Source: Rickettsiales bacterium (GTDB lineage Bacteria > Pseudomonadota > Alphaproteobacteria > Rickettsiales > JABCZZ01). Taken from it: a stretch of DNA of 64,000 nt. Numbering within the stretch: position 1 is the stretch's first letter; the number at the start of each line of letters is the position of its first letter. Where the stretch lies: NCBI GenBank assembly GCA_035765535.1, contig DASTXE010000004.1:189137-253136 (forward strand), read 5' to 3'. A program made the position numbers and the translations under genes. Positions 15,414-16,728 of this stretch are shown here, in pieces. A model generated the notes under the pieces. The model was not told the DNA's origin and ran no database searches. It saw only the letters and a list, made by a program, of their open reading frames with translations.

Positions 15414-16728
15414 CGGCTTTCGGTCATACTTTACCGCGCCGCTGATCGCCATCCTGCTGCTGGGCTTTTCCAGCGGCCTGCCTCTGGCATTAAGCGGCGC
15501 AACACTTGCCGCCTGGCTCACCGAATCCAAAGTAAATATTCACACGGTCGGCCTGTTTGCCGCCGTCGCCACTCCCTATACGCTGAAATTCTTCTGGGCA
15601 CCGCTGATCGATAATTGGCATCTGCCATTTCTCTCTGCGCGCTTCGGACGCAGGCGCGGCTGGCTGCTCGCGGTGCAATTCCTCCTCATGTGCGCTATCG
15701 CGTTGCTGGGCTTTGCCAACCCCGGCATAAACCCGACCGTGACAGCACTCGGCGCATTGCTGGTGTCATTCCTTTCCGCCAGTCAGGATATCGTGATCGA
15801 TGCGTACCGCGTGGAAATACTGAAGCCCGAAGAACAGGGCGAAGGCGCTGCAATGATCCAGCTCGGTTACCGCATCGGCATGATCGCCTCCGGCGCTGGC
15901 GCTTTGTATCTGGCTTCTTATGTCAGCTGGCAAATGACCTATCTCATGATGGCCGCGCTGATACTCCCCGGCATCCTCACCACCTTAGCTATAAAAGAGC
16001 CAAACAATATAACAACCGAAAGCAGCATGGATACGCGGAGGAGCGAAGCGACGACCACGCAGGGGAATCCCGACGGAGTCGGGATGGGGATGGGGGCGGC
16101 GCGCCCCCCATATAAAAATATTTTTAAACACGCCATCCTCGACCCGTTCACCGACTTCATGAAACGCGACAGCTGGTGGCTGATTCTGATTTTCATCATC
16201 GTCTATAAATTCGCCGACGCGTTTATCGGCTTCCTGACCAATCCGTTCCTCCTGAGCATCGGCTTCACGAAAATACAGATCGCCAACATCGTGAAAATTT
16301 ACGGCACGGGCGCCACCATCGCCGGCACGTTCATCGGCGGCTCGCTCGTCGCACGTTACGGCGCGGTGCGCATTCTTTTTGTCGCTGGCTTCCTGCATGC
16401 CGTGACGAACCTGCTATACGCCGTGCAGGCCCATCTGGGCGCAGACGCACCGTTTCTTATGTTGTCAACAGTAGCGGAAAACATTACCGGCGGCATAAGC
16501 GCAGCGGCATTCGTCGCGTTCTTAAGCAAACTCTGCAATCGCCATTATACCGCTACGCAATACGCGCTGCTAAGTTCGCTCGCGGCACTGGGCCGCACCT
16601 GGCTTTCCACCTCCGCCGGATACGCCGTGCAGTTGCTCGGTTGGGAATGGTTCTTCATGCTCGCTACGCTTCTTGCTCTGCCCGGCCTGTTGGTGCTATG
16701 GTGCCTGCGCAAGAAGGTAGAATTATGA
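15388..16728 (+). CDS. ampG: AmpG-type muropeptide MFS permease
   Basis: 446 aa. LLLGFSSGLPLAL and FFWAPLID..FGRRRGWL are collinear with E. coli AmpG as I remember it. It overlaps the upstream gene by 26 nt and the downstream start by ATGA. Confidence 0.85.
   Translation: MTRTQKPSNGFRSYFTAPLIAILLLGFSSGLPLALSGATLAAWLTESKVNIHTVGLFAAVATPYTLKFFWAPLIDNWHLPFLSARFGRRRGWLLAVQFLLMCAIALLGFANPGINPTVTALGALLVSFLSASQDIVIDAYRVEILKPEEQGEGAAMIQLGYRIGMIASGAGALYLASYVSWQMTYLMMAALILPGILTTLAIKEPNNITTESSMDTRRSEATTTQGNPDGVGMGMGAARPPYKNIFKHAILDPFTDFMKRDSWWLILIFIIVYKFADAFIGFLTNPFLLSIGFTKIQIANIVKIYGTGATIAGTFIGGSLVARYGAVRILFVAGFLHAVTNLLYAVQAHLGADAPFLMLSTVAENITGGISAAAFVAFLSKLCNRHYTATQYALLSSLAALGRTWLSTSAGYAVQLLGWEWFFMLATLLALPGLLVLWCLRKKVEL
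16034..16109. repeat. palindromic element A, copy 1 (inside ampG, in-frame)
   Basis: It shares gcggaggagc, gcgacgacc and cgcaggggaatcc, plus two hairpins, with 33124-33196. Confidence 0.8.

Follow-up and report, generated by a model that had tools for sequence, protein, structure and literature searches.

Three copies of a GC-rich palindromic repeat are present in a stretch of 64,000 nucleotides from a Rickettsiales bacterium (GenBank assembly GCA_035765535.1, contig DASTXE010000004.1, positions 189,137 to 253,136 of the forward strand), called the window in the following, and about 40 further copies of the same architecture were found in related contigs. Together they form a dispersed repeat family with a conserved secondary structure, the members of which occupy differing sites and orientations in orthologous genes and are often part of intact open reading frames (ORFs), in loops that relatives lack. 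In our view they very probably represent a previously undescribed family of non-coding elements of about 80-90 bp, of the same kind as the repetitive extragenic palindromic (REP) sequences and the Rickettsia palindromic elements (RPEs), which are selfish or formerly selfish and are dispersed in a clade of uncultured Alphaproteobacteria.

An initial annotation of the window had described a 76-nt string at 16034-16109 as an RPE-like repeat within the gene ampG. The string is indeed present there, inside the 446-aa AmpG ORF, and is the core of the element; the ends, however, have to be moved outward by about 10 nt on the 5' side and about 5 nt on the 3' side. The recurrence proposed near 33124 and, in a more divergent form, near 61238 was recovered by two approaches. 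The pattern of the most conserved part of the element, called the head (GGAGGAGC-N1-8-GCGACGACC), matches the window three times (16037, 33128 and 61238), always on the + strand, and the number of matches expected by chance in the window is 0 (100 dinucleotide-preserving shuffles); a pattern with a fixed gap, GGAGGAGCNNNNGCGACGACC, has no match in the window, as the loop of the head varies in length and a variable gap is needed. A covariance model trained on 23 family members, with copies A and B among them and copy C left out, was used to score every position of the window with filters off, and it returned exactly the three copies A, B and C, the next best match having an E value of 1.9. Copies A and B can be aligned over about 86 nt and differ at three stem positions by compensatory double changes (two pairs in hairpin 1, one pair in hairpin 2), and copy C shares with them the head, the small hairpin and the terminal G/C hairpin. 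The GC content is 0.67-0.69 for copies A and B, 0.52 for copy C, and 0.48-0.55 for the window.

Copy A (16025-16114, + strand; 70.8 bits, E = 2.9e-15) lies in frame and in sense orientation within ampG (15388-16728, + strand), an intact gene for a 446-aa muropeptide permease of the AmpG/PAT family of the major facilitator superfamily, as judged from homologues and Pfam PF07690/PF13000. Its head, GGAGGAGC-GAA-GCGACGACC (16037-16056, + strand, exact pattern match), is proposed to form a stem with a GAA triloop, two G-C pairs on top and tandem G.A/A.G mismatches. It is followed on the same strand by the mini-hairpin region CC(A)C-GCA-GGGG (16055-16065, defined by alignment A4 and pair counts), in which one pair is broken, by hairpin 1, ATCCCGAC-GGA-GTCGGGAT (16067-16085, from folding), by a 6-nt tandem duplication of GGGGAT (16086-16091) that the alignments, including that to the covariance model, show to be private to this copy, and by hairpin 2, GGGGGCG-GCG-CGCCCCC (16092-16108, from folding), with the AT-rich tail ATATAA. 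The duplication keeps the frame and encodes a second 'GM' dipeptide. Hairpins 1 and 2 had been noticed initially; both are real and fold under RNA and DNA parameters on either strand, but the element as a whole apparently contains four stem-loops.

Copy A encodes about residues 213-243 of AmpG (SMDTRRSEATTTQGNPDGVGMGMGAARPPYK; the insert-junction stretch reads ...TRRSEATTTQGNPDGVGMGMGAAR...), and the 25-30 extra residues that the initial annotation had placed in the central loop of the protein are borne out by comparison with orthologues. The nearest relative of this AmpG has 64% identity to it and comes from uncultured metagenome-assembled genomes (MAGs). In an alignment of 32 AmpG sequences, the extra residues are missing in 24 of the 31 orthologues, which have just a short loop between transmembrane helices 6 and 7 (TM6-TM7). 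The remaining seven carry other inserts within the same loop, so that the peptide itself is found in 0 of 31 orthologues, but in two of these seven (P0009 and P0004) the covariance model detects the same DNA element in reversed orientation; the copies in the AmpG loop are antisense to the gene at L189 9109-9194 and L190 4275-4364 and sense in the window (labels with L denote loci, those with P proteins). The AlphaFold model of the window AmpG has a mean predicted local distance difference test (pLDDT) score of 84 and a predicted template modelling score of 0.86, and its sole internal segment with a pLDDT below 50, residues 209-237 within a coil of residues 202-241, matches the coordinates of the repeat. 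In the predicted structure the insert is thus a disordered cytoplasmic loop. A separate Logan assembly, that of the run SRR25158471, which may or may not be the source sample of the window, likewise encodes this AmpG in identical form and with the insert.

Copy B (33116-33201, + strand; 96.3 bits, E = 2.8e-21) lies in frame and antisense within a gene on the minus strand, a fact that had been missed in the initial annotation. The gene (32275-35886, minus strand) is intact and encodes a GltD-like FAD/NAD(P) oxidoreductase of 1203 aa (Pfam RP005_N and Pyr_redox_2, homologues), with conserved synteny with cysNC and a T2SSE ATPase gene. The copy consists of the head GGAGGAGC-ACTTT-GCGACGACC (33128-33149, + strand, pattern match), hairpin 1, ATCCGAAC-GGA-GTTCGGAT (33160-33178, + strand), and hairpin 2, GGGGGCA-GCG-TGCCCCC (33179-33195, + strand), both hairpins being placed by folding and alignment. 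In an alignment with 47 orthologues (A3), most have 0-6 residues where the window protein has about 31. The GltD-like gene has been struck repeatedly: it contains one copy in the window, three in L187 (protein P0124; 10133-10218 and 10445-10530 on the + strand, 10910-10995 on the minus strand), two in L191 and two in L192, at no fewer than five different sites, and the site in the window is yet another than those in the three other loci.

The same permissive loops also hold other, unrelated repeat-derived peptide families in relatives, as is seen in the AmpG alignment and in alignment A3. These peptides are of the forms PLEGEGG...(S)PLPNPPPQG(GRG), GHEEKSPMTHDS(K/R)LMT and VESRE(L/S)SK...HSTL, and they are carried by the oxidoreductases P0192, P0197, P0204, P0217, P0175, P0218, P0140 and P0155 and by the AmpG proteins P0056, P0065 and P0076. 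The clade therefore seems to host several families of in-frame repeats and not just one, and the presence of unrelated repeat peptides in the same loops argues that permissive sites have been chosen by selection, rather than by a target specificity of the elements. Two further orthologues of the oxidoreductase, P0182 (1368 aa) and P0190 (1318 aa), are longer by 150-200 residues and match Pfam PF04480 (DUF559, endonuclease-like) and PF18741, which suggests the insertion of a nuclease-domain module.

Copy C (61226-61310, + strand; 32 bits, E = 4e-6) is divergent and intergenic, being located in a 135-nt spacer between the convergent genes purK (60111-61181) and amtB (61317-62750, minus strand). 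It contains the head GGAGGAGC-GTA-GCGACGACC (61238-61257, + strand, pattern match) and a terminal hairpin, AAGGGGCGA-TCTATGC-TCGCCCCTT (61281-61305, + strand, from folding), followed by ATAAT. The head-sense strand of all three copies is the + strand, and its GC skew is negative across almost the whole window, as in a lagging-strand sequence; three copies are too few for a test of a replication-orientation bias.

The concern that the likeness between the copies might be local to the window has been removed, as the element recurs in dozens of related contigs. A metagenome collection scanned with a stricter, exact head pattern yielded 65 loci, most of which are real family members, and the covariance model applied to these loci gave 70 matches, including second copies that lie outside of the text pattern. 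The length of the units is 79-90 nt, apart from one copy that reaches 103 nt, and their GC content is about 65-70% in genomes of 45-64% GC. The consensus begins with about ten semi-conserved bases that often include GT(G/A)G, with the subtypes GCGTGG(G/A)TACGC and GCCGTAGTCAT. This 5' part is followed by the head (GGAGGAGC, a variable loop of 3-6 nt, and GCGACGACC), by the mini-hairpin C(C/T)CGC(A/G)GGGG, that is CCC-GCR-GGG, by hairpin 1 of 7-8 bp, in which the sequence is free, the pairing is kept and the loop is usually C-GGA-G, and by hairpin 2, GGGGGCA-GCG-TGCCCCC, with an AT-rich tail similar to ATAAT. Most copies are single, and three head-to-head inverted pairs (L185, L133 and L137) occur among the about 40 copies.

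The secondary structure of the family is under constraint. In a plain MAFFT alignment of 23 copies that was not fitted to the structure (A4), 92.6% of the cells are paired versus 81.7% in shuffles, and 62 cells show double-sided changes versus 18.7, neither value being reached by any of 500 shuffles; when the partners were moved by 1-3 columns, 44-54% of the cells were paired. The pairing statistics hold on 34 copies. Covarying pairs across the family number eight of eight in hairpin 1 and four of seven in hairpin 2, whereas the pairs of the mini-hairpin are mostly invariant and lend that stem weak support. The head is the most conserved part also in copies that were found by the model only, and head variants occur among these copies: the top pair C-G is replaced by T-A (five times) or by G-C, and these replacements speak for a stem at this point of the head. 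The support for the stems of the head and of the mini-hairpin is much weaker than that for hairpins 1 and 2.

Two observations concern pairs of copies. Over the last 49 nt on the 3' side (CCCCGCAGGGGAATCCGAACGGAGTTCGGATGGGGGCAGCGTGCCCCCC), copy B has the same sequence as a copy inside xseA (L125 1312-1397), which lies on a contig with 45% GC that stems from a different sample, although hairpin 1 is otherwise the most variable part of the family; this identity may be the mark of an active subfamily common to both or of a transfer between lineages. The same copy in L125 and that at L127 2368-2453 have orthologous downstream flanks (...ttaaa.cc.t.aat.gctctggcaatctg.tcggc), and at this site, shared by two species, the sequences of hairpin 1 are wholly different and both fully paired. 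Either an old insertion has undergone compensatory evolution, or the site has been struck twice.

The head hairpin is best treated as a hypothesis, for which one covarying pair and the variation of the loop length speak. In the fold proposed here, the GGA/GAC repeats of the head would pair as tandem sheared G.A and be capped by a G-N-A triloop, as in other motifs of this kind. The 3-nt loops are of the form G-N-A (GAA, GCA, GTA and GGA) and are closed by C-G pairs, and non-Watson-Crick cells on the head-sense strand are G:T in 21 cases versus A:C in 7. The G:T excess and the G-N-A triloops hint at strand-specific folding.

Heads of the same kind, with CGCRGG after them, also occur in two further architectures. 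One is a 58-nt type (GCTC-head-CCGCGGGT-GCGGGGGCCGGCCCCCGC) that was also found in a high-GC Alphaproteobacteria MAG (L071). The other has about 110 nt, ends with GGTAACTAG and occurs in contigs of 70% GC and in soil contigs, with relatives in a Myxococcales MAG (L009, L076). A loose 18-base pattern applied to a genome collection gave at least 120 matches, mostly due to chance in high-GC Actinomycetota and others, and among the matches listed only L007, L009, L071, L076 and L094 look like real relatives. In the type of about 110 nt, the third, the 5' flank GTCGACGC is complementary to GCGACGAC of the head at seven of eight positions, a possible alternative pairing, and tails similar to GGTAACTAG contain stop codons in two frames (Ga0190265 loci). 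At L139, positions 2457 and 2506, the head is present as a partial tandem duplication.

Residence within intact genes, which the initial annotation had likened to the in-frame colonization of ORFs by RPEs, is frequent across the family. For each type-1 copy the longest stop-free frame that spans it was taken, and long frames were checked against Pfam. Among the 34 copies that had been found through DNA alone (the window and loci L122-L186), 15 (about 44%) are verified as intragenic, in 11 protein families. The interrupted genes, identified by Pfam, encode the large subunit of exonuclease VII (XseA), a KdsB-like cytidylyltransferase, a MiaB-like radical-SAM enzyme, LeuRS (two copies in one gene), PriA, RarA/MgsA, RlmN, the coproporphyrinogen oxidase HemF, CarA (two copies), AmpG and the GltD-like oxidoreductase. 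At the element, the matches to the Pfam domains are stretched by about 20-34 aa compared to the profile, and the inserts add about 26-30 residues where family profiles and orthologues have none. The intragenic copies occur in both orientations about equally, with up to three in one gene.

The use of reading frames differs between the two orientations. Among the sense copies each of the three frames is in use (RRSEATTTQGNP..., VRGGVLYDDPAGE..., EERSDDLAGG...), whereas all ten antisense intragenic copies start in one frame, with the pattern GG[TA]LPPS.LR.DSPAGSS.SAPPR.H, while the other antisense frames are usually open. The number of open frames per copy is 4.03 versus 3.33 +/- 0.15 in exact dinucleotide shuffles, a value that was reached in 0 of 300 cases and corresponds to a modest depletion of stop codons; these figures on frames and stop codons are indicative and are not to be read as probabilities, as the copies share descent. 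The use of one antisense frame and the depletion of stop codons are signs of selection on the coding reading. A tandem-doubled profile of the antisense peptide had no match at E <= 1 in a set of 5.8 billion proteins, which is probably due to the correction for composition bias of a query rich in Pro, Ser and Gly.

The following scenario would account for these features. Copies would spread by non-autonomous transposition, and selection would keep just those insertions that add a multiple of three bases, are free of stop codons in the frame that is read, and lie in permissive loops. The retained copies would be translated into flexible linkers rich in Gly, Pro, Ser and Ala, and the frame bias of the antisense copies would arise from differences in how well the encoded peptides are tolerated. 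The covariation is probably the outcome of selection that acts on source copies for recognition by whatever factor reads the hairpins. A tentative extension, which we consider possible rather than likely, is that the element moves as single-stranded DNA and that its hairpins are recognized in trans by an enzyme of the HUH/Y1 type (RAYT or IS200-like) or by another enzyme, as proposed for REPs. The asymmetric, strand-specific design, flanks that upon inspection showed neither inverted repeats nor target duplications, the GT(G/A)G upstream of the head, the head-to-head dimers, the G-N-A triloops and the G:T excess are all compatible with a single-strand step. It is likewise possible rather than likely that the G.A-rich head together with CGCRGG defines a cross-phylum superfamily of single-strand-folding mobile elements with three architectures, in which the head would be the recognition site of a mobilizing enzyme.

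Several points weigh against the interpretation as a mobile family that is translated within its host genes. The translation of the inserts is deduced from the intactness of the ORFs. In the flanks of 36 copies no convincing terminal inverted repeats or target-site duplications were seen, and for this reason the ends of the element are known only within a few bases. A crude regular expression for HUH...YxxNP (RAYT/IS200-type) proteins had no match in about 0.5 Mb of sequence, made up of the window and the fragmentary loci, and when 112 ORFs located no more than 2 kb from a copy were compared with Pfam, 107 different families and no recurrent mobility gene resulted. The copies compared include no near-identical pair and no filled and empty alleles of strains, and all insertions could be old; the genome-wide copy number of the source organism is an extrapolation from 64 kb. 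With respect to structure, the invariance of the head in A4 is in part a matter of construction, because the loci had been retrieved with the exact head pattern; nearest-neighbour DNA energies do not predict the head hairpin, for which shuffles do at least as well (-0.6 kcal/mol); the alignment that gave the G:T bias had been fitted to the model; and the copies are related by descent, so that the shuffle statistics overstate significance.

Among the alternatives, the most probable is that the repeats are true REPs or REPINs moved by a RAYT, or that they belong to the alphaproteobacterial superfamily of CGTC-tagged REPs, which includes the Rickettsia elements RPE-4 and RPE-6; nevertheless, we regard it as unlikely. 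Intragenic copies of REPs with GTAG or CGTC tags are known from several species (Di Nocera et al. 2013, PMC3733652), among them Opitutus terrae and R. conorii, and the CGTC-tagged REPs are mainly alphaproteobacterial and lack a dedicated transposase (PMC3733652). REPs share with the present elements the form of short palindromic repeats, present singly or as head-to-head dimers, and REP copies in ORFs often lie in genes for replication, repair and tRNA synthetases, add 20-30 residues and are sometimes present twice in a gene; the alphaproteobacterial hosts and the apparent lack of a dedicated transposase are further features shared with the CGTC-tagged REPs. Many of the present copies have GT(G/A)G at a distance of 4-6 nt on the 5' side of the head, the stem of hairpin 1 frequently comprises 8 bp and begins with A-T, and the reverse strand of the head contains CGTC. 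The absence of inverted termini and target duplications from the flanks, the asymmetric strand-specific design, hairpins near the ends and the occasional inverted dimers (three pairs) are in addition reminiscent of REPIN/RAYT systems and of the palindrome-associated elements of the IS200/IS605 group. However, GTAG- and CGTC-tagged REPs have a single stem of 8-9 bp (20-40 nt in total), with the tag at the foot of the stem and a CCA tail, and the definition of CGTC-tagged REPs demands a loop of 4-5 nt and an 8-9 bp stem starting with A-T, whereas the present unit is a composite of four stem-loops of 80-90 nt, in which the conserved sequence resides in the G.A-rich head and neither a tag at a stem foot nor a CCA tail is found in a defined position. 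GT(G/A)G is not universal, hairpin 1 is flanked by GGGGA and GGGGG, and CGTC occurs only inside the head and on the reverse strand. The motif strings are absent from the supplementary lists of the REP survey (PMC3733652), the intragenic share of about 44% is far above that of usual REPs, and the crude search in the loci and the window revealed no RAYT-like motif; no Y1/HUH transposase was found near any copy, and the mechanistic link to REPIN/RAYT systems is inferred.

The other alternatives are considerably less probable. A classical miniature inverted-repeat transposable element (MITE), that is, a deletion derivative of an insertion sequence with a DDE transposase that moves by cut-and-paste via terminal inverted repeats, is an improbable explanation. 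By its size the element would rank among the smallest MITEs, the copies in L187 have a DDE_Tnp_1 fragment at a distance of about 9 kb, and one subtype shows a weak 8-nt match between the 5' flank and hairpin 2 (GGGTACGC versus the reverse complement of GCGTGCCC); this candidate inverted repeat is, however, absent in the GTAGTCAT subtype, none of the 36 copies showed flanking direct repeats, just one of the two ends bears a conserved head, which makes the element asymmetric, and no transposase recurs near the copies. MITEs that form in-frame fusions with ORFs, such as ERIC, QMITE1 of Coxiella and the MITEs of Anabaena (PMC10969869), resemble the present family as small non-autonomous repeats, but MITEs have terminal inverted repeats of 15-30 bp, target-site duplications and identifiable parental insertion sequences, none of which were seen here. 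It is likewise improbable that the repeat is primarily a transcribed RNA element (an mRNA stabilizer, a processing site, a terminator or a small RNA) with incidental copies in coding regions. Such roles have been considered for REPs (PMC3733652), and the strong covariation of the hairpins, the excess of G:U over A:C on the head-sense strand and the location of copy C and of several metagenome copies just downstream of genes are in line with them. Against them stand the about equal orientations within genes, so that a strand-specific role of the RNA fails for half of these copies, and the absence of a T run after hairpin 2 and of an Rfam match. Moreover, a triloop with a C-G closing pair is rather a mark of stable hairpins in DNA than of motifs in RNA. 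Lastly, a module or linker that is conserved at the protein level, a chance similarity or an assembly artefact can hardly be entertained. The encoded peptides are of low complexity and linker-like, and the antisense copies share one frame, as might be expected of a peptide module; but the same DNA is read in at least four frames on both strands and is also intergenic, and conservation is found at the level of DNA and pairing instead of at that of the peptide. The intergenic and multi-frame copies effectively refute this reading and that by chance, for which the expectation in the window is 0, and the identical ampG insert in the separate Logan assembly and the origin of family members from many samples argue against an artefact.

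The palindromic family described here is closest in its behaviour to the RPEs. These are elements of about 150 bp that form ten families, with 44 insertions into ORFs in R. conorii and nearly half of the members of some families in frame (PMC10969869; RPE-1 to RPE-10 were described by Ogata et al. 2000 Science 290:347 and 2002 Genome Res 12:808, as summarized in PMC10969869). Both are dispersed, hairpin-forming, non-autonomous repeats of alphaproteobacterial hosts without a known transposase, both have nearly half of their copies in frame within unrelated and apparently functional housekeeping genes, and in both cases the host proteins gain a few tens of residues where the fold can accommodate them. 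The view that the element works like an RPE is supported by these results. Membership in the RPE families had not been claimed in the initial annotation and is not supported: RPEs are about 100-150 bp long and belong to AT-rich (about 30% GC), obligately intracellular Rickettsia, so that host, GC content, length and architecture differ, and the distinctive invariant head and the four-hairpin layout set the present family apart from the RPEs as they have been described. The family is accordingly filed apart from RPEs, GTAG-tagged REPs, CGTC-tagged REPs and MITEs, on the basis of the published descriptions of these groups.

Further searches agree with the initial statement that the sequence family could not be recognized. 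No family of Rfam 15 reached the gathering score on the element, the best local E value being 0.28, and the window as a whole gave two tRNAs. Viral contigs scanned for the pattern yielded 0 matches, a search of literature full texts for the head strings found no relevant match, and neither the head strings nor two encoded peptide strings were found in the supplements of the REP survey (PMC3733652). Three other ideas were discarded. An intrinsic terminator was rejected because no copy is followed by a T run and a consensus scan calls none at copies A or C; a translation start site formed by GGAGGA and the ATG of the loop was rejected because many copies do not contain any start codon there; and an alphaproteobacterial repeat string, CGTCATTGCGAG, occurs in none of the loci, so that the resemblance to it was dropped.

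To our knowledge, the in-frame colonization of essential genes by palindromic selfish DNA was first called unique to Rickettsia and has since been seen only sporadically elsewhere. The behaviour itself is therefore already known, and new here are its scale in a lineage other than Rickettsia, an explicit head that is shared across phyla, and the frame bias. The present family shows in-frame colonization at a comparable or higher frequency in a different, uncultured host lineage of moderate GC content, and it strikes core genes such as those for LeuRS, PriA, RlmN and others, with up to three copies per gene. The covariance model can serve for the annotation of inserts that inflate loops and confuse alignments of orthologues and gene calls in MAGs, and the inserts are natural maps of insertion-tolerant loops in many housekeeping proteins. 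The head represents a concrete single-stranded DNA or RNA ligand for finding the enzyme that moves REP-like repeats without a transposase, including the CGTC-tagged REPs. If the superfamily proposal is true, the element would systematically endow essential proteins of one uncultured alphaproteobacterial clade with disordered loops of about 27-29 residues, one frame being favoured, and it would constitute a second, independent case of 'protein-coding palindromes' outside Rickettsia, with a recognition motif that is explicit enough for work in vitro.

The window contains several other features that are unrelated to the palindromic family. Two ORFs on the + strand, 1851-4829 (992 aa) and 49865-54079 (1404 aa), match no Pfam family at E <= 1e-5. 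A third, at 6018-7994 (+ strand, 658 aa), likewise lacks a Pfam match and contains, at 6218-6949, at least five tandem units of about 138 nt (46 aa) with 64-83% identity; its product is an uncharacterized repeat protein. A direct repeat of about 64 nt with about 88% identity (GGGGGAAAAYGGGAAAGCTTCTAAAGARAGCGTAGAATTGC...AAATCGG; 8980-9043 and 11823-11886), which has no Rfam match, flanks a gene for an 886-aa ResIII/helicase protein (9085-11745, minus strand) and might be the boundary of a cassette or a duplicated regulatory or RNA element. Within the helicase ORF itself, four copies of a 52-nt motif are spaced by about 249 nt (9252-10050), which suggests that the C-terminal part of the protein contains an internal repeat of about 83 aa.

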